Notes: generated by a model not told the origin, from the letters alone. A stretch of 6,051 nucleotides of DNA from a virus (IMGVR_UViG_3300020041_000002:1-6051); one strand, 5' to 3'. Counted from the first letter of the stretch, positions 122-6,051 are shown. Program-made: numbers and translations.

Positions 122-159
122 ACTACATTATTCGCTCTAACAATTTAAATAACGTGTAG
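1..159 (+). CDS. 3' part of a small lipoprotein-like ORF that starts at 5898 on the circle (63 aa in total); partial here because of the window cut
   Basis: Frame 1 is open from base 1 to TAG at 157-159. It continues the frame of ATG 5898. The stop lies 1 nt before the VP2 ATG at 161. Joined translation: MSDTKTPFYKSKAFWTLVSSIIAALAAFFLSSCSAQTRVQRSGVHIDTVRVDYIIRSNNLNNV. Confidence 0.6.
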   Translation, partial: KAFWTLVSSIIAALAAFFLSSCSAQTRVQRSGVHIDTVRVDYIIRSNNLNNV

Positions 160-160
160 T

Positions 161-1408
161 ATGGCTACTCCCGCTGCCACATCTTTTGGTCAAGCTCTTG
201 GTCAATCCGCCGCCTCCTCGGGTGCAACCGGCTTAATCTCTGGTGCTCTTGGCCAGCTTTTCGGCGGCATGACCGCTCGTCGTCAATGGAAGTTTCAGCA
301 AAAACAGATGAAGCTTCAGCAAAAATATGCCCTCGAGCAAATGCAGAAGCAATCTGAACTTTCCTATGCTAACTGGCAAAAACAATTTGACTACGAAAAT
401 GCCTATAATGACCCCTCTAAGGTTTTTGATCGCTACTTGAAGGCTGGCGTAACACCTGCGGCCGTTTTAGGATCGTCGGGCGTTGGTGTTAATGCCACGA
501 TGTCTGGCGGCTCTGCTCCCATGCCTTCTGCTTCTGGTCCTTCCGGTGGTTCACCTGTTACCCCCGGCGGCTTTGCTCCTACCAGCCCCACCGCTATTGC
601 GGAGAGCATGGTTGCGCAATCTACGGTTGACCGCAATACTGCTGCTGCTAATCGAGACGATGCTGAAGCTGATCTTATGAGAGGCAATACTCATAGCGCT
701 GACTGGCGAAAGGAGATGGACAATCTGGAGAGGAAGGCTTTGGAATATCATATCAACAATGCCTCTGAGTTAATTCGCCTTAATCGCGCTTTGGCCGACA
801 TTCATGCCGCTGACGCCGAGTACGCAGATCTTATGGCTACATATAAGTTTCAAGACTTTGTCGCCATGTATGCGAAGCATGTTGAGGAAGCAAATCAGAT
901 CAAGAAATACAATGATAAATATTTCGATTCTGTTTACGCTGCCCAAATCGCCCGAGATTATGCCGCTGCCTACGAATCTGCCGCCTCTGGTGATGTCTTA
1001 GAAGTTGAGTCTGAAATACGTAAGGTAAACCTGGCTGATCTTCGTGAGTGGTTTAATCTCAATTGGGATTCAGAAGTTGATGTCCCCGAGGTTGATGGAA
1101 AAGGTAAGCCTACCGGTAAGACAACGAAAATGACAGGTCGTCAGATTCACCAGCAGCTTATGGGTCTCGCCGCCTCGGAAGGCCAGCAAGACCTTTCTGG
1201 TCGTTGGTTTCAAAATCGGTCCAGCAAGAACGCCTTTGGTTATGGTTTAGCGAGAACCGCCTTGCTTGGCGCCATGGCTATCGCCGGCACGGCTGTTACG
1301 AAGCGTCCTACCCCTGTCGATTACGATGAAAGTAGAGAAATCTACGGCAAAGATGGCAGATACGCTGGAACTACGAAGTCGTCCCGTCGTTATGTAAGAG
1401 AAAATTAA
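161..1408 (+). CDS. VP2: Microviridae VP2-type DNA pilot / minor capsid protein (415 aa)
   Basis: The layout is typical of VP2/H-like pilot proteins. There is a Gly/Ala/Ser-rich N-terminus, then a Q/K-rich coiled segment (RRQWKFQQKQMKLQQKYALEQMQKQ). That is followed by NAYNDPSKVFDRYLKAGVTPAAVLG, which resembles the conserved ...M.RLK.AGLNP... VP2 motif. A G/S/P low-complexity linker follows. ATG start, TAA stop at 1406-1408. Confidence 0.82.
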   Translation: MATPAATSFGQALGQSAASSGATGLISGALGQLFGGMTARRQWKFQQKQMKLQQKYALEQMQKQSELSYANWQKQFDYENAYNDPSKVFDRYLKAGVTPAAVLGSSGVGVNATMSGGSAPMPSASGPSGGSPVTPGGFAPTSPTAIAESMVAQSTVDRNTAAANRDDAEADLMRGNTHSADWRKEMDNLERKALEYHINNASELIRLNRALADIHAADAEYADLMATYKFQDFVAMYAKHVEEANQIKKYNDKYFDSVYAAQIARDYAAAYESAASGDVLEVESEIRKVNLADLREWFNLNWDSEVDVPEVDGKGKPTGKTTKMTGRQIHQQLMGLAASEGQQDLSGRWFQNRSSKNAFGYGLARTALLGAMAIAGTAVTKRPTPVDYDESREIYGKDGRYAGTTKSSRRYVREN

Positions 1409-1488: not shown

Positions 1489-1806
1489 ATGAAAACAAAT
1501 AAAAAGTGTAGTTTCTCGGATTTACCCATTAATGTTGTCGAATACATGTTTACCGAATGGCTTGTCCGCCAAGGTTTATTTTCCGTGTATAAGGCGAATT
1601 ACGAAAAATTTTATCCAAATCATCGACCTTTTCGCGACAATTTGCGCGTTAAGATTCGCAGCCTATGCCGCTCGTCTATTCTTGGTGTCGAAAATCTCAT
1701 TTCTACGTCTTTCCCGTTTACCATGACTCCGGAAGGTTATAACTTTTGGTTAGATCGATCGAATCTTTGGCGGCAGTTTTGTAAAAAATTTAAGTCTATT
1801 CTCTAA
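1489..1806 (+). CDS. Hypothetical protein, 105 aa, no family recognised
   Basis: ATG-initiated ORF in the gene-sense strand directly downstream of the candidate promoter. Codon third positions are T/C-biased like the core genes. The next ORF starts 11 nt after its TAA. Confidence 0.6.
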   Translation: MKTNKKCSFSDLPINVVEYMFTEWLVRQGLFSVYKANYEKFYPNHRPFRDNLRVKIRSLCRSSILGVENLISTSFPFTMTPEGYNFWLDRSNLWRQFCKKFKSIL

Positions 1807-1817
1807 ATCGTATTATT

Positions 1818-2141
1818 ATGACACAAGTTCATGTTGTTATTCGTCGAGTTAATCCGGCCCTTAAAATCGACCTCGCCCAGGTAGGTCATCTCAAAGATGG
1901 TCGTTTTGAACCCCTTCCTTTTAGCGCCTTTAAGGATACCCCTATTGCGCGCTTTCTGAAGAGCTCTCACATTAGCGATTCGCTTTACGTCGATCATTCG
2001 GATGCTCTCCATCTTGTTGTTGCTTGTGGAGATATCCCCGGCTCCGCCGTCGATTTTTTCGACAATACGATGGTACTTACTTTTAATTCTGAACTCAACT
2101 ACGATGAAAGCACGACGAAAGAAGAAGGGACGAGGAACTAA
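1818..2141 (+). CDS. Hypothetical protein, 107 aa, no family recognised
   Basis: ATG start 11 nt after the ORF105 stop. T/C-ending codon bias matches VP1/VP2/VP4. The translation has globular-looking composition (VVIRRVNPALKIDLAQVGHLKDGRFEPLPFSAFKD...). TAA at 2139-2141. Confidence 0.5.
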   Translation: MTQVHVVIRRVNPALKIDLAQVGHLKDGRFEPLPFSAFKDTPIARFLKSSHISDSLYVDHSDALHLVVACGDIPGSAVDFFDNTMVLTFNSELNYDESTTKEEGTRN

Positions 2142-2390
2142 AGTAGTAACCCGCCCGCTTGGTGGAAAAGTTCTTTGACTGTAAGCTCTCGGGAGAGTTC
2201 TCCCTCTCCTGGGAGTTTTCGCCCATATATAGAATCGTGTGCCGTTAAGCGCGAGGCGAGTAATTGTTTCCGGACGCCGAAGATATCGCGGATGCGAGAT
2301 CGAGGCCGGAAACAGCGCAGCCCGCGTAGGCACACAGTTTTCGCGCTCGAAAGTACCGTCTTTCGAAGCGCAAAGTATTATTCTTTGATC
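2142..2390 (+). other. Structured, relatively GC-rich segment with no convincing coding capacity; candidate ssDNA complementary-strand origin, regulatory leader or ncRNA
   Basis: Hand count of 2181-2380 gives about 54% G+C, which looks higher than the flanking genes by eye. Hairpins read directly: GGGAG/CTCCC (2191-2195/2200-2204). GTTTCCGG/CCGGAAAC (2266-2273/2306-2313) encloses GATATCGC/GCGAGATC (2282-2289/2294-2301, one A.G mismatch, GGAT loop). An 11-bp stem with one bulge sits at 2343-2353/2360-2371. The frame-0 translation is low-complexity and Arg-rich. The only ATG in the segment is at 2292. Confidence 0.5.
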
Positions 2391-2591
2391 ATGGATATTT
2401 TTGATTTCCACCCCCGTTTTTCTCCTGTAATCAACAGTATTCCCTACCGTTTTTCTATTGGCGCTTACCGTGGCAAGAAACGCGTTGTTATTGCCTGGTT
2501 CGCCGAAGAAGAGCCTGCTATTAATTATCTCACTCGCTGTCGTCTTGACTATCCTTCTATCAAATTTGATTGTCTTAGGAGCTTTTTGTAA
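2391..2591 (+). CDS. Small hypothetical protein (66 aa from ATG 2391; 99 aa if ATG 2292 is used); its stop overlaps the VP4 start
   Basis: TAA at 2589-2591 shares its last A with the VP4 ATG (2591-2593), forming TAATG. That is the classic arrangement for translational coupling. The sequence from 2391 (MDIFDFHPRFSPVINSIPYRFSIGAYRGKKRVVIAWFAEEEPAINYL...) looks protein-like. The start codon is uncertain. Confidence 0.5.
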   Translation: MDIFDFHPRFSPVINSIPYRFSIGAYRGKKRVVIAWFAEEEPAINYLTRCRLDYPSIKFDCLRSFL

Positions 2592-3661
2592 TGCCTTGTC
2601 TCTCTCCCATATGGATTCGAAACCGTCGCTATTTCGACAAGAAGAACCCTTGTCGAGGTGGTTCTGATGTTGCAAAGTCTGCGCTTGCTCTTCGCCCTTG
2701 GGATGTCGCCCGACAATGGCTCATGGTCCCCTGTGGTAAGTGTGAGGAGTGTTTGCGTCGTCTGCGTAATGACTGGTTCGTTCGCTTGGAGCGAGAGTTA
2801 GCTCGTTGTAAGGCTGAATCCCGGCAGGCTATTTTTATTACAATTACTATCTCGCCCAAATATTACGATGAAGCGCTGCGTGATCCTTCCAAGTTTATCC
2901 GACGGTGGAATGAGAGAATTCGCCACAAGATTGGTCATTCTTTTAAACATGCCTTTTTCCAGGAGTTTGGCACCCACCCAGAAACAGGATCGGCCCCGCG
3001 CCTTCATTTTCACGGCTTTCTTTTTGGGACCGATTGTCTTTACAACGAGATCCGATCGGCCGTCCGTGATTTAGGCTTCGTTTGGCTCGCAAAAGGAACG
3101 CACAAACGTGCACGATATGTTGTTAAATACGTTACTAAGCAAATTTATTTTGACCCCACTGAAATATCTAACCAAAATGTCGTTTTAGATGGAAAGACTA
3201 CATCTTTATCTTGCCTCCTCCAACATCGCCGTTATACGCGAAAATTCGTATCTGCTGGCGTTGGTGATTTTCTTGGTTATATGCCTCGCCCTTCTACCCG
3301 TACTTCGACGTGGTCTTACTTTGATTTTGAGAAACGTGTCAATTATAACTACTCGATTCCTCGATATTATCTTAAGTACCTTAAACCGGAAGACGACGTT
3401 GCCCGCTCGATTGCCGCTGCTGACGCTTATTCACGTTTTAGCAAGTCTCCTCTGGTTAAACGTATTGTGTCTCTGTGTGTTGATCGGTTCTCCCTCAATT
3501 CCTCCGTATCCCGTAGAGCGTCATATTCGTGGGAGCAAAAGCAAATAATGCGTTTTTCTGCTTCTTCTCGCAAGATGCCAGAATTCGATCCTCCTACCTG
3601 GCTTGACCAGGATATTGTTCGATTTTGGCAAGACCACTACAAACTTCAACTAATTATTTAA
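2591..3661 (+). CDS. VP4: Microviridae VP4 rolling-circle replication initiator (HUH endonuclease superfamily), 356 aa
   Basis: The N-terminal MPCLSPIWIRN and the Cys cluster PCGKCEEC (2729-2752) are typical of VP4. RCR motif 1 is FITITI (2834-2851). Motif 2 is HFH in RLHFHGFLFG (3005-3013). Motif 3 is YVVKYVTK with the catalytic Tyr (3116-3139). An AGGAG at 2577-2581 lies 9 nt before the ATG. Confidence 0.93.
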   Translation: MPCLSPIWIRNRRYFDKKNPCRGGSDVAKSALALRPWDVARQWLMVPCGKCEECLRRLRNDWFVRLERELARCKAESRQAIFITITISPKYYDEALRDPSKFIRRWNERIRHKIGHSFKHAFFQEFGTHPETGSAPRLHFHGFLFGTDCLYNEIRSAVRDLGFVWLAKGTHKRARYVVKYVTKQIYFDPTEISNQNVVLDGKTTSLSCLLQHRRYTRKFVSAGVGDFLGYMPRPSTRTSTWSYFDFEKRVNYNYSIPRYYLKYLKPEDDVARSIAAADAYSRFSKSPLVKRIVSLCVDRFSLNSSVSRRASYSWEQKQIMRFSASSRKMPEFDPPTWLDQDIVRFWQDHYKLQLII

Positions 3662-3664
3662 TTT

Positions 3665-5455
3665 ATGGGAAAACAACCTTTTATTTCTCACGCCGTTAAT
3701 GGCTATTCTCGCTATGATGTTCCCGAGAGTAAGGCCTTTACGTGTACGCCAGGAATTTTGTATCCAGTGCGGATTGATTTTATTAACGCTCGAGACCGTG
3801 TGTCTATCGAGCAAGGTATTGATGTTCGTAGCAACCCGTTGGCTGTTCCGACATTTAATCCTTATACTATTCGCTTGCATCGTTTTTGGGTGCCACTTCA
3901 ACTTTATCATCCTGAGTTGAGGACGAATAGCAGTAAGTTCGACATGAATGAGTTGAGCTTGAACTTTGTTGCCGCCTCGTCAACTTCGTCCTATCCGTAC
4001 ACTACGAACAATTACCCTTACTCAAATTCACTGCTTCGTTGGTTGCGTGTCGTCCCCGCTTCTATTCCGTCGACAACTTCCAGTAATGTTCCCATGTCGG
4101 CCAACCTTTCGGCCGCTCAATTAGGATATCCCTTAGGTTGGTGTACCGCTGATTCTTATCTCGCCTATTGGGATATCGTTCGCAATTATTATGGCTATTC
4201 GCAGTGGGGTCTCTATTCCTTTGCTTGGCCCAGCAGCTGGTATCTCATACCCAACAGTACTGGTGCCGCATATAATGTCCTTCAGTTCAGTGACACTCAG
4301 TGCTTTTTTTCGCAAAGATTTGGAAATCTTGAATTCTTAGATGCTTATTTCGAGAGCCAATTCTACCCCTCAGTCGTACCATCGACGAATAATACATATA
4401 ATAGAGGAAATCTATTTTCTCAGATATTGCTTTCGGACCTTGGTGCCACGATTACTGCCTCTAAGGATGGCTATCCCGTTTCCTCTCTTTACCCTGGAAG
4501 TACTTCGTTGTCCTCCGCAGGTCCTGCTAATCAGTTTGCTAACGGTCCCAGTGATACAACCCTCACTCCGCTTGGCGCATTTCTCGTCGCTCACCCAATG
4601 GCTGTTATACCTTCGAATCCCGATCGTTATAGCCGTTTGCTTCCCGTTGGTAGCTCCGAAGGTGTTTCCATGACTGGCGTTTCGACTATACCGCAGTTAG
4701 CTATTGCTTCGCGACTTCAAGAGTACAAGGATTTGCTTGGTGCTGGCGGATCCCGTTATAGCGATTGGTTGGAGACTTTCTTTGCTTCAAAGATTGAACA
4801 CGTCGATAGACCTAAGTTGCTTTTTAGTGCTTCGCAGACTGTTAACGTGCAGATTATCATGAATCAAGCGGGACAGAATAATTTTTCCGGACCGAGCGTA
4901 AACGGCCCTCTTGGTCAGCAGGGTGGCGCTATCGCCTTCAACCAAACCCTTGGTCGTCGTCAGTCTTACTATTTTCGCGAGCCTGGCTATATGATTGATA
5001 TGCTGAGCATTCGCCCTGTTTATTATTGGGCAGGTGTTTACCCCGATTACCTTCATTATACCGGTCCCGATTATTTCAATCCGATTTATAATGATATTGG
5101 ATATCAAGACGTTCCTGGCTTCCAATTTGGCTTTGGGACCACGTCAACCGCTGAAACCGTGGCTTACGAGCCTTGTTTTAACGAGTTTCGCTCCTCCTAT
5201 GATGAAGTTCTTGGCCAGTTGTCTCGATTCCAGGGTGCTTCCGATGCCCTTCCTGTCTATTCTTATTGGGTTCAACAGCGCGTTTTGTCGGCGAGCTACA
5301 ATCAGTATTACTCCCTTCTGTTTGTAGATATCGCACAAGTAAATTCGCCTTTTGCTTCCAATAAAGAGGATAATTTCTTTATCAACCTCTCGTATTCTGT
5401 CCAGAAGAAGAATTTGGTTAATAAAACATTTGCAACCCGCCTGTCTAATCGTTAA
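3665..5455 (+). CDS. VP1: Microviridae major capsid protein VP1 (F-like jelly-roll), 596 aa
   Basis: Several blocks are conserved in gokusho/alpa-type VP1. They are PGILYPV...NARDRVSI...RSNPLAVPTF...HRFWVPLQLY near the N-terminus, AYWDIVRNYYG, PDRYSRLLP, and LAIASRLQEYKDLLGAGGSRYSDWLETFF...VDRPKLL. The C-terminal block is AYEPCFNEFRSSYDEVLGQL. The ATG lies 3 nt after the VP4 stop. Confidence 0.93.
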   Translation: MGKQPFISHAVNGYSRYDVPESKAFTCTPGILYPVRIDFINARDRVSIEQGIDVRSNPLAVPTFNPYTIRLHRFWVPLQLYHPELRTNSSKFDMNELSLNFVAASSTSSYPYTTNNYPYSNSLLRWLRVVPASIPSTTSSNVPMSANLSAAQLGYPLGWCTADSYLAYWDIVRNYYGYSQWGLYSFAWPSSWYLIPNSTGAAYNVLQFSDTQCFFSQRFGNLEFLDAYFESQFYPSVVPSTNNTYNRGNLFSQILLSDLGATITASKDGYPVSSLYPGSTSLSSAGPANQFANGPSDTTLTPLGAFLVAHPMAVIPSNPDRYSRLLPVGSSEGVSMTGVSTIPQLAIASRLQEYKDLLGAGGSRYSDWLETFFASKIEHVDRPKLLFSASQTVNVQIIMNQAGQNNFSGPSVNGPLGQQGGAIAFNQTLGRRQSYYFREPGYMIDMLSIRPVYYWAGVYPDYLHYTGPDYFNPIYNDIGYQDVPGFQFGFGTTSTAETVAYEPCFNEFRSSYDEVLGQLSRFQGASDALPVYSYWVQQRVLSASYNQYYSLLFVDIAQVNSPFASNKEDNFFINLSYSVQKKNLVNKTFATRLSNR

Positions 5456-5467
5456 TATATTGATCTT

Positions 5468-5764
5468 ATGGCACTTGATTGGTTACTTGAAGATGCTCCC
5501 GCTTATGTTTCTCGCGGTCAGCGCATTCTTTCCGTTCTTAATGGTTCTGGCTCCGTCGATGTCCTTCCTGGTCGTCCGGATGTGACGGCGGAACCTTCCG
5601 ATTTTGAGAAGGGCGAGAAATACAATCCCGATATTGATTTCGACCCTAATTCGTTCTCTCGTATGGACAAGTTCGATGGTCTCGAGGTTGGTCAGGAACT
5701 TATTGATTCTCAGCTCGATAAGGCTAAGTCCGCCTCTAAGTCCTCCGCTTCTGAAGAAAAATAG
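5468..5764 (+). CDS. Acidic hypothetical protein, 98 aa; possible scaffolding-type protein (inference only)
   Basis: ATG 12 nt after the VP1 stop, with T/C-biased codons. By hand count there are about 20 Asp/Glu versus 11 Arg/Lys. I see no match to the gokushovirus VP3 motif I remember. Confidence 0.6.
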   Translation: MALDWLLEDAPAYVSRGQRILSVLNGSGSVDVLPGRPDVTAEPSDFEKGEKYNPDIDFDPNSFSRMDKFDGLEVGQELIDSQLDKAKSASKSSASEEK

Positions 5765-5794
5765 TATGTCCTTTACTTGATGATATATGCTACG

Positions 5795-5873
5795 TGCGCG
5801 GACCCCTTCTGCAAGAGTCCGTGAATTGCTGAAGGTTATTGGTAATGACTGCAGGAGAGGCCGCGCATTTTTC
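5795..5873 (+). terminator. Long imperfect hairpin followed by TTTTT; candidate intrinsic terminator and/or ssDNA origin hairpin
   Basis: TGCGCGG (5795-5801) pairs with CCGCGCA (5861-5867). The stem continues inward, with CCCCTTCTGCA (5803-5813) against TGCAGGAGAGG (5850-5860) carrying one bulge, one mismatch and one T.G pair. A further AGTC/GACT segment follows. A T5 run occupies 5868-5872. It sits in the 133-nt gap after the capsid gene block. Confidence 0.5.
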
Positions 5874-5897
5874 TATCGTTCTTTAATTTTTAAATTT

Positions 5898-6051
5898 ATG
5901 TCGGATACTAAGACCCCTTTTTATAAGTCGAAGGCTTTTTGGACACTCGTTTCTTCCATTATTGCCGCTTTGGCTGCCTTTTTCTTGTCCTCATGTTCCG
6001 CTCAGACTAGGGTTCAGCGTAGTGGTGTTCACATCGACACAGTACGTGTTG
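5898..6051 (+). CDS. 5' part of the small lipoprotein-like ORF (63 aa on the circle, ending at window position 159); an alternative in-frame ATG at 5787 would give 100 aa
   Basis: ATG 5898 is preceded by an A/T-rich leader. The N-terminus has a charged n-region (MSDTKTPFYKSK), a hydrophobic core (AFWTLVSSIIAALAAFF) and the lipobox-like L-S-S-C with Cys at residue 33. The ORF is truncated by the window edge and is absent from the supplied ORF track. Confidence 0.6.
   Translation, partial: MSDTKTPFYKSKAFWTLVSSIIAALAAFFLSSCSAQTRVQRSGVHIDTVRV
5931..6051. repeat. Second copy of the 121-nt terminal redundancy (matches 1-121)
   Basis: Exact identity to 1-121 on direct comparison. Confidence 0.96.

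Follow-up and report, generated by a model that had tools for sequence, protein, structure and literature searches.

Exchangeable hairpin modules in the main spacer of a microvirus genome as candidate complementary-strand initiation signals

What does a dense cluster of hairpins do in a genome as small as that of a microvirus? The question is raised by the virus sequence IMGVR_UViG_3300020041_000002:1-6051, here called the window, whose 6051 bases represent a circular microvirus genome of ~5930 nucleotides (nt) with a 121-nt terminal overlap (1-121 = 5931-6051) and with every gene on the plus strand. A sequence-only reading had singled out positions 2142-2390 as a 249-nt, hairpin-dense island without coding capacity, and had named a structured complementary-strand origin as its first choice. 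We find that the spacer proper, 2179-2390, is pieced together from hairpin modules that are independent of one another and have the T-rich strand as their sense strand. For two of these modules, D1 and E, we see an even chance that they are accessory signals for complementary-strand initiation on single-stranded DNA (ssDNA).

Structure and covariation of the spacer modules

Compared with dinucleotide shuffles, the interval 2142-2390 folds unusually well both as RNA (-101.7 kcal/mol, z -5.27) and as DNA (-51.3 kcal/mol, z -4.59), with 0/200 shuffles as good in either case, and its minus strand folds more weakly than the plus strand (RNA z -3.19). Its composition had been overestimated at about 54% G+C; the actual value is 52.6% against 45.8% for the genome, which places the interval only in the top 6% of 249-nt windows. 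The interval holds a single ATG, at 2292, and the hammerhead core CTGATGA is found on neither strand. Rfam assigns it to no family, the sole match in the interval, Metazoa_SRP, being at chance level (E 5.4, 12.8 bits against a gathering threshold of 70).

At least three stem-loops had been described, and the two that had been named are real. The nested 48-nt hairpin 2266-2313, in which GTTTCCGG (2266-2273) pairs with CCGGAAAC (2306-2313), is the inner part of a larger closed domain where GTGTGCC (2237-2243) pairs with GGCACAC (2329-2335). The 11-bp hairpin 2343-2371 carries one bulged A and the loop TACCGT. The first supposed stem-loop, at ~2151-2166, lies in a gene: positions 2142-2178 belong to a gene of 24 amino acids (aa), and the true spacer is consequently 2179-2390 (212 nt). 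For this shorter interval the absence of coding capacity is borne out. Relatives were gathered by the E 25-mer, by D-specific pattern scans, by one metagenome scan (among the matches listed) and by a VP4-based sample (n=58) that is independent of the element. Across 92 relatives the spacer measures 69-228 nt, with lengths in all three mod-3 classes, and no conserved open reading frame (ORF) crosses it. We rejected stop-codon read-through or a long ORF: frame 0 of the window is open throughout 2142-2591, yet no more than 17/92 relatives keep open the frame that continues into the 66-aa gene. Given this variability in length and frame, and two forms of module D that cannot be aligned with one another, we conclude that the spacer is not coding.

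The larger domain, module D1, is an irregular hairpin of four helices. It folds as DNA to -29.4 kcal/mol (z -4.9), and its minus strand to -24.4 kcal/mol (z -3.75). In 28 distinct sequences 95.5% of cells are paired and 14/33 pairs are compensated on both sides, a result reached by 0/500 shuffles, while slid controls give 28-48% paired. The outer stem exists in four versions, GTGTGCC/GGCACAC in the window and CGCGC(T)GCC/GGCGCGC, CGAGCC/GGCTCG and CGCGCACC/GGTGCGC elsewhere. An alifold consensus of D1+E contains 93 G-T cells against 7 A-C cells, and the structure therefore belongs to the plus (sense) strand.

Module E folds as DNA to -10.6 kcal/mol (z -3.2), and its loop and upper stem are nearly invariant among copies; 59 IMG/VR microvirus contigs contain the exact 25-mer. 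The stem covaries in copies that were not found through E, as CGCGAAAG/CTTTCGCG (L146), CTCAAAAG/CTTTTGAAG (L314) and TCCGAAAG/CTTTCGGAG (L265), and in L195 the lower stem is swapped outright for CCGGCC/GGCCGG. From the compensatory changes and the unvarying loop of E we conclude that the fold has long been under selection. The 66-aa start codon is separated from E by 19 A/T-rich bases, for which the consensus in relatives is GTAAT/GTATT followed by a T-run and ATG. As for a kissing partner of the E loop, ACGGTAC is found nowhere else in the window genome.

The commonest D type is D2, a three-way junction that cannot be aligned with D1. Its covariation comprises 2213 Watson-Crick cells, 8 G-T and 0 A-C, with one helix present in five compensated versions. 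It contains the hairpin GACGC-GNA-GCGTC, where N is A, C, T or G, and also GGCC-GTTA-GGCC; the unpaired motifs AAGTGRA, AYGGAG and GTAACGAA are conserved, and the apical insertion is variable. A minimal D is found in L185 and L207. An 11-aa ORF starting at an ATG inside D2 was rejected, since TAG loop variants and changes of ATG to ACG or GTG break it. A distant relative of lineage (c), described below, carries GGCGGAAGTGAAGATCTGGAAGATCGAGCTTACGGCGAATTCGCCGTCGGCAGACAGTTTGC at 3700-3790 on its minus (T-rich) strand, in the VP2-VP4 spacer (L352, PQ007273), and this element shares AAGTGAAG and ACAGTTT motifs and a two-hairpin layout with D2. The D family may be older and wider than exact-match scans show.

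Upstream of D, module B is a G+C-rich hairpin that folds to -8.2 kcal/mol on the plus strand (z -2.0) and -6.5 kcal/mol on the minus strand. By alignment all relatives examined have it: the hairpin is retained although its sequence differs greatly, and as a rule a run of 5-8 T comes next. Among the terminator-like sites of the L006 genome, B ranks first (11 pairs, 8 of them G-C, TTTTTTTT); the window copy has a T-run of only TTTT and was not flagged by the terminator scan. We rely here on the alignment and the L006 scan, as an automated count of hairpins with T-runs (29/64) was too crude, owing to extra small hairpins. Module B looks like an intrinsic terminator that closes a genome-long transcription unit.

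In most relatives B is followed by a short hairpin C and then by GGTAWATA, a landmark of which the window keeps the TATATA box. Alignments show that hairpin C covaries (CCGAA/TTCGG, CCGGC/GCCGG, CTGGC/GCCAG, CCAGC/GCTGG), and the adjacent GTATATAC is a palindrome, its own reverse complement. The TATATA box is missing in 7/58 sampled relatives and is thus not essential. In L001 (5560-5625), L278, L293, L315, L326, L327 and L339, all without D/E, a three-way junction (CCCCAGGGGA ... TCCCCTGG) replaces the simple B; it holds two GAA-triloop hairpins, CAACC-GAA-GGTTG and CCGC-GAA-GCGG, a D2-like design at a different position. Some lineage (b) copies (L164, L207) have an insertion upstream of hairpin C, ATAATACATTGTTCTATTTGCCCGGGCATATATGATACATTATTGT, which forms an imperfect inverted repeat around GCCCGGGC and whose arms resemble dif half-sites (ATAATGTAT).

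Modularity, transfer between lineages and strand composition

The VP4-based sample shows the modules in several combinations. Its 58 relatives comprise 33 with D2+E, 1 with D2 and an E variant, 2 with D1+E, 9 with D1 alone and 13 with neither; of the last group, six have a B-based three-way junction (CCGAAGG and GCGAAGC hairpins) and seven have B alone. E by itself is absent from L131, L134, L140 and L148. The element is present in one copy per genome, always in the main spacer beside the same landmark and never within genes.

The block of landmark, D and E is also found, 83-100% identical, in two other lineages, (b) and (c), whose VP4 is 26-30% identical to that of the window and whose remaining proteins are not detectably similar to the window's. 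Sharing of D+E across such divergent VP4 proteins fits recognition by a host factor, presumably one that the hosts of all three lineages have in common. In lineage (b) (L010 and many human-gut contigs) the block follows the VP2 gene in gene sense and precedes, by ~520 nt, an att core that is itself followed by a 197-aa gene and VP4. In lineage (c) (MG945515 = L002, L026, L040, L077 and others) it stands between VP2 and VP4, inverted with respect to every gene, and occurs in both D1 and D2 versions.

Some members of lineage (b) are prophages (L164 3225-9138, L168 and L248, compared with L010 2531-2554), flanked by RelA/SpoT, RecA, FNT-transporter and ABC genes (ABC ATPase). Their flanks carry a direct repeat of ~24 nt with the dif-like core ATTTAACATAATGA, ~520 nt beyond E. 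Bacteroidetes microviruses reportedly integrate by means of XerCD, an idea that these prophages fit. The ~520 nt between E and this core are G+C-rich and repetitive, with GAGGTTGGCCGGGTCCCCTCTCG, for example, occurring twice. The junction core in L164 and L168 lies outside D/E, which is therefore not the attachment site, and we rejected a folded-ssDNA attP for XerCD of the CTX-phage type.

The orientation of the element follows strand composition. Its sense strand is the T-rich strand in 106/108 microvirus-sized contigs, and the two exceptions have ORFs on both strands and look chimeric. Over the 108 contigs the TA skew is +0.18 where the genes have the same sense as the element and +0.36 where they have the opposite sense. 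Fourfold sites of the coding strand in the window's own lineage, (a), and in (b), with one odd contig (L221, ORFs on both strands) set aside, have T 0.46-0.52, A 0.06-0.12, C 0.25-0.32 and G 0.12-0.18; those of lineage (c) are the mirror image, with A 0.41-0.47, T 0.08-0.10, G 0.24-0.32 and C 0.18-0.21. T-richness of a single strand is the expected footprint of C-to-T deamination in ssDNA phages (PMC1087484), and fourfold sites of phiX174 have T 0.63, C 0.20, G 0.11 and A 0.07. In the window the T-rich strand is the gene-sense strand and, by family precedent, would be the encapsidated one; we infer that it is the packaged strand in every lineage.

An A-rich coding strand with this mirror-image composition marks a broad gut clade with the gene order VP1-hyp-VP2-VP4 (L002, L026, L040, L077, L204, L230 and L246, and also L352-L355 = PQ007273, MK765569, PP511621, PP511655). 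To it belongs Tortoise microvirus 19, whose fourfold sites have A 0.62, G 0.25, T 0.07 and C 0.06. Members of the L002 type bear structured spacer elements on the strand complementary to the genes. This A-rich clade may package the strand complementary to its mRNAs, and we know of no description of antisense-strand packaging for Microviridae. The mirror-composition clade may deserve a study of its own.

Possible roles of the D and E modules

D1 and E are accessory cassettes that gut microviruses exchange by recombination, and their most likely role is complementary-strand initiation. On entry of the circular ssDNA into the cell, single-strand-binding protein (SSB) would coat it and the very stable hairpins would remain folded. 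In that state the D domain, the invariant loop and upper stem of E, or both, would be recognised by a priming enzyme of the host (primase or RNA polymerase), and from a primer laid down there host polymerase would make the complementary strand. The first choice of the sequence-only reading is the one that best fits modules that are strand-specific, borne on the T-rich strand, optional and exchanged across Reps, features from which we infer the function.

Like the primase-dependent complementary-strand origins of the Microviridae G4, St-1, alpha3 and phiK, the modules form ~130-140 nt of several stable hairpins in a non-coding microvirus spacer, on what is here presumably the packaged strand, and in both cases ssDNA would be read by a host enzyme and not by a specific Rep. 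Mini-hairpins with GNA or GNNA loops closed by C-G (GCGNAGC/GCGNNAGC) have been reported at G4, St-1 and alpha3 priming sites, at ssiA and at N4 promoters (PMC13037366). Their GNA/GTTA loops are matched by D2 and by the B-based junction (CCGAAGG, GCGAAGC, C-GTTA-G) of relatives without D/E, and C-G-closed GNA and GTTA loops fit DNA better than RNA. The modules differ from the G4-type origins in being optional, in having several versions (D1, D2, minimal D) and in passing from one lineage to another. The sequences are dissimilar, and the modules offer no assignable CTG-type start site; primer synthesis by host primase at a defined trinucleotide beside hairpin I on SSB-coated DNA, which characterises G4-type origins, is putative here. 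A blastn search of the region against 50,697 phage records returned only unclassified Microviridae sp. and no homology to the G4, St-1 or alpha3 origins.

Plasmid single-strand origins (sso) resemble the modules in another respect. The types ssoA, ssoU, ssoT and ssoW are 150-200-nt stretches of folded ssDNA that are orientation-dependent, dispensable and recognised by host RNA polymerase; several unrelated types exist, which are interchangeable, host-specific and exchanged as cassettes between replicons with different Reps. Judged by their distribution, the modules are similarly orientation-dependent, dispensable and exchanged across unrelated Reps, whereas their replicon is a phage and their sequence matches no plasmid. 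Only two short chance matches were returned by blastn of D1+E and D2+E against plasmids, and we rejected an sso or oriT homologue. The ssoA motifs RS-B and CS-6 (TAGCGT/A terminal loop) are not present as such: D1 of the window is without TAGCGT, which occurs in some D2 copies only, as one variant of GACGC-GNA-GCGTC, partly in the stem.

A structured ssDNA signal is also located in a spacer of phiX174 (PMC9865509). Like the modules, the phiX174 PriA site (n' site, F-G spacer) and the M13/f1 minus origin are structured elements in the longest spacer of a small phage with an ssDNA genome; they act as ssDNA signals, as the modules would. Their folds and sequences differ, with no similarity detected by searches, and their enzymology is known for E. 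coli only. M13 mutants without the minus origin are viable, a parallel to the dispensability of D/E. Reekeekee- and roodoodoo-microviruses have conserved intergenic hairpins in which, across divergent genomes, the loop does not vary and changes in the stem are compensated; these have been proposed, without proof, as negative-strand initiation sites (PMC9865509). Those are single hairpins of other clades and other sequences, for which neither modular exchange nor a link to strand composition has been described. A structured spacer as candidate minus-strand origin is an established idea.

Several observations weigh against D1 and E as initiation signals. Both are dispensable: with 13/58 relatives having neither, and seven of those only hairpin B in the spacer, the modules cannot be the sole complementary-strand origin. 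Hairpin C has been lost in the window. Several invariant G-T pairs in D1, and an interval that scores slightly better with RNA than with DNA parameters, suit RNA at least equally. The cultured gokushovirus phiMH2K has an A-rich coding strand (A 0.47, C > G) that does not follow the mirror pattern, so that T-richness does not prove a strand to be the packaged one. As the inversion happened only once in evolution, the link between skew and orientation carries little statistical weight. Finally, we know of no priming motif for the presumed hosts.

The RNA-like features lead to the main rival reading, which the sequence-only reading had named as a phage ncRNA and which we hold to be rather unlikely, namely that D and E are a small structured RNA gene or RNA modules, accessory cargo such as an anti-defence or host-directed small RNA, independently transcribed in lineage (c). 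The strong covariation, the slightly better RNA fold and the restriction of G-U pairs to the sense strand would suit such a gene, as would the conserved unpaired motifs and variable apical insertion of D2 and the minimal D of L185 and L207. A patchy, horizontally transferred distribution is typical of accessory cargo, and a self-contained gene could stand in either orientation to its neighbours. Against this, no Rfam family matches any version: at permissive thresholds, the element gave no match in the window or in four loci that represent D2, minimal D and lineages (b) and (c), and ARAGORN found no tRNA and no tmRNA. A promoter is not recognisable either, as a sigma-70 scan of the spacer stayed at chance level, the spacing around TATATA varies over 14-23 nt, and in the stretch from E to the start codon just 3/97 copies contain TAnnTTTG (13/97 if its spacing is relaxed). 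The same rarity led us to drop a Bacteroidetes-type promoter TAnnTTTG that would place D/E in a non-transcribed gap. No U-tract follows E, which is hence not a terminator; GNA triloops closed by C-G are of the DNA and not the RNA type; and an RNA gene would give no reason for the sense strand to be the T-rich strand in every lineage. Broader, and in our estimate unlikely, is the notion that D/E is no replication signal but a structured nucleic-acid "gene" that moves horizontally and consists of RNA or of a ligand of folded ssDNA, with the constant flanks C-GGTAWATA and E around alternative cargoes (D1, D2, minimal D), which would act on a host factor, for example in counter-defence.

The modules might also bring no benefit at all, as selfish or neutral hairpin elements (MITE- or PATE-like) or recombination scars spread among co-infecting microviruses. 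Such elements would leave modules that come and go among close relatives, nearly identical copies in lineages far apart and several combinations of D1, D2 and E, all of which are seen; they would not leave a single copy at one constant site outside genes, compensatory changes and an invariant E loop, and we regard this reading as distinctly improbable. We saw no terminal inverted repeats or target duplications around the modules. An IS200/IS605-type PATE or miniature inverted-repeat transposable element (MITE) was rejected because hairpins C and E are unrelated, unlike the ends of these elements, each genome has one copy, and the E core has no real counterpart in the bacterial genomes searched; for D1+E and D2+E there is likewise no real plasmid match. 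The 20-nt core of E is in fact missing from 185,579 bacterial species genomes apart from a single chance match inside a coding region and without the stem, which together with the plasmid result marks the element as specific to microviruses, and on the same grounds we rejected mimicry of a host repeat or CRISPR repeat.

A part in the viral-strand (rolling-circle) origin, with Rep nicking at the palindrome beside hairpin C and D/E serving as Rep-binding site or enhancer, has the attraction that in three lineages D is always bordered on its left by the hairpin with GGTAWATA, and that a nick site would explain both the sharp recombination boundary and an orientation coupled to the strand that becomes single-stranded. 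The landmark also bears a loose likeness to CAACTTG/ATATTAATA, which we take to be the phiX174 site. Near-identity of D/E despite Reps that are 26-30% identical, seven of 58 relatives without TATATA box, C, D and E, the loss of hairpin C in the window and the loss of D and E each singly make this reading very improbable. Least credible, to a degree that we would call extremely improbable, is a structured 5' leader regulating translation or stability of the 66-aa gene and VP4, which the sequence-only reading had offered as an alternative. E does end 19 nt before the 66-aa start codon, and the 66-aa gene overlaps VP4. The distribution contradicts the proposal, as the modules are antisense to VP4 in lineage (c) and in lineage (b) follow VP2, far from VP4, with the att core and the 197-aa gene in between; these inverted and displaced copies exclude a leader of the downstream genes. 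Moreover, relatives with identical downstream genes lack the modules. Where the modules are present, the terminator-like B precedes them, and the stretch from B to D yielded no promoter.

Genome context and significance

The nearest GenBank records are unclassified "Microviridae sp." from faeces of pig, dog, civet and musk-deer, the nine nearest being 72-76% identical across 76-85% of the window genome. Table 1 lists the features of the window.

Table 1. Positions of genes and spacer features in the window
Feature	Position	Strand	Remarks
VP2-like pilot protein	161-1408	+	
105-aa gene	1489-1806	+	
107-aa gene	1818-2141	+	
24-aa very basic ORF MKARRKKKGRGTKVVTRPLGGKVL	2104-2178	+	stop TGA 2176-2178; unannotated; overlaps 3' end of 107-aa gene in another frame
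Module B	2183-2218	+	G+C-rich hairpin, 15 pairs including G-T, loop 2198-2203, then TTTT 2216-2219; terminator-like
TATATA box	2226-2231	+	remnant of landmark "short hairpin C + GGTAWATA(C)" before D in three lineages (alignments)
Module D1	2237-2335	+	99-nt irregular hairpin, four helices; fold and covariation
D1 helices	2237-2243/2329-2335; 2249-2261/2315-2327; 2265-2273/2306-2314; 2283-2289/2294-2300	+	last pair apical, loop GGAT
Module E, GCGCTCGAAAG / TACCGT / CTTTCGAAGCGC	2343-2371	+	29 nt, 11-bp stem, one bulged A
A/T-rich run AAAGTATTATTCTTTGATC and start codon of 66-aa gene (2391)	2372-2393	+	no Shine-Dalgarno
66-aa gene	2391-2591	+	overlaps VP4
VP4/Rep	2591-3661	+	Pfam REP_ORF2-G2P
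VP1 capsid	3665-5455	+	Pfam Phage_F
98-aa gene	5468-5764	+	
63-aa gene across overlap	5898-6051 plus 122-159	+	

The 24-aa ORF had been overlooked. The 154 copies in relatives encode only 35 different peptides, and the most frequent of these is specified by 34 nucleotide sequences; changes are thus mostly synonymous, and the gene is under clear purifying selection. Pfam and PHROG give no match. The peptide resembles the J DNA-packaging protein of phiX174 and G4 in size and charge only, and is a probable counterpart of it. The same synonymous changes account for the apparent G-T covariation of a "module A" at ~2151-2166, which we rejected as a structural hairpin.

Other junctions of the genome had been described as overlaps or gaps of 1-12 nt; this is incorrect, since gaps of 80 nt (1409-1488) and 133 nt (5765-5897) exist. 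The former is unstructured (z +0.9). The latter contains, on the plus strand, one large hairpin at ~5795-5867 with closing GCGCGG/CCGCGC and then TTTTT (DNA z -2.6), which might be another terminator or another ssDNA signal. A segment like a signal peptide and the lipobox-like LSSC make the 63-aa ORF (MSDTKTPFYKSKAFWTLVSSIIAALAAFFLSSCSAQ...) a candidate small lipoprotein; the start of the 197-aa ORF of lineage (b) (L164) is very similar to it (MSKCPALLKSKKFWTLVASIVAAFSAFFLTSC). On the minus strand a 290-aa open frame (1803-2675) spans the spacer and neighbouring genes and crosses the swappable D module. It has no Pfam match, and the strong T bias on the coding strand probably accounts for it. 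No gene of the window genome is preceded by a Shine-Dalgarno sequence, and related prophages occur in contigs with cellular genes; on this basis the host is probably not an enterobacterium.

What is new here is the D/E family itself, which has no Rfam match and for which the two GenBank records with D+E carry no annotated feature. New as well are its modular alternatives, their exchange across three lineages including prophages, and the coupling of their orientation to strand composition. To our knowledge, E. coli phages and a few plasmids are the only replicons in which complementary-strand initiation is understood, and nothing of the kind is defined for the abundant gut microviruses. The 29-nt hairpin with its invariant loop and the two alternative larger domains are clonable candidates that could serve to find the host enzyme that starts replication. 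They could also show whether host range depends on initiation signals, as that of plasmids depends on sso types. From sequence alone, the orientation of the block might reveal which strand a metagenomic microvirus packages, and it points to a clade with perhaps reversed polarity. Even in a genome of 6 kb, the spacer shows that non-coding modules are exchanged across lineages.

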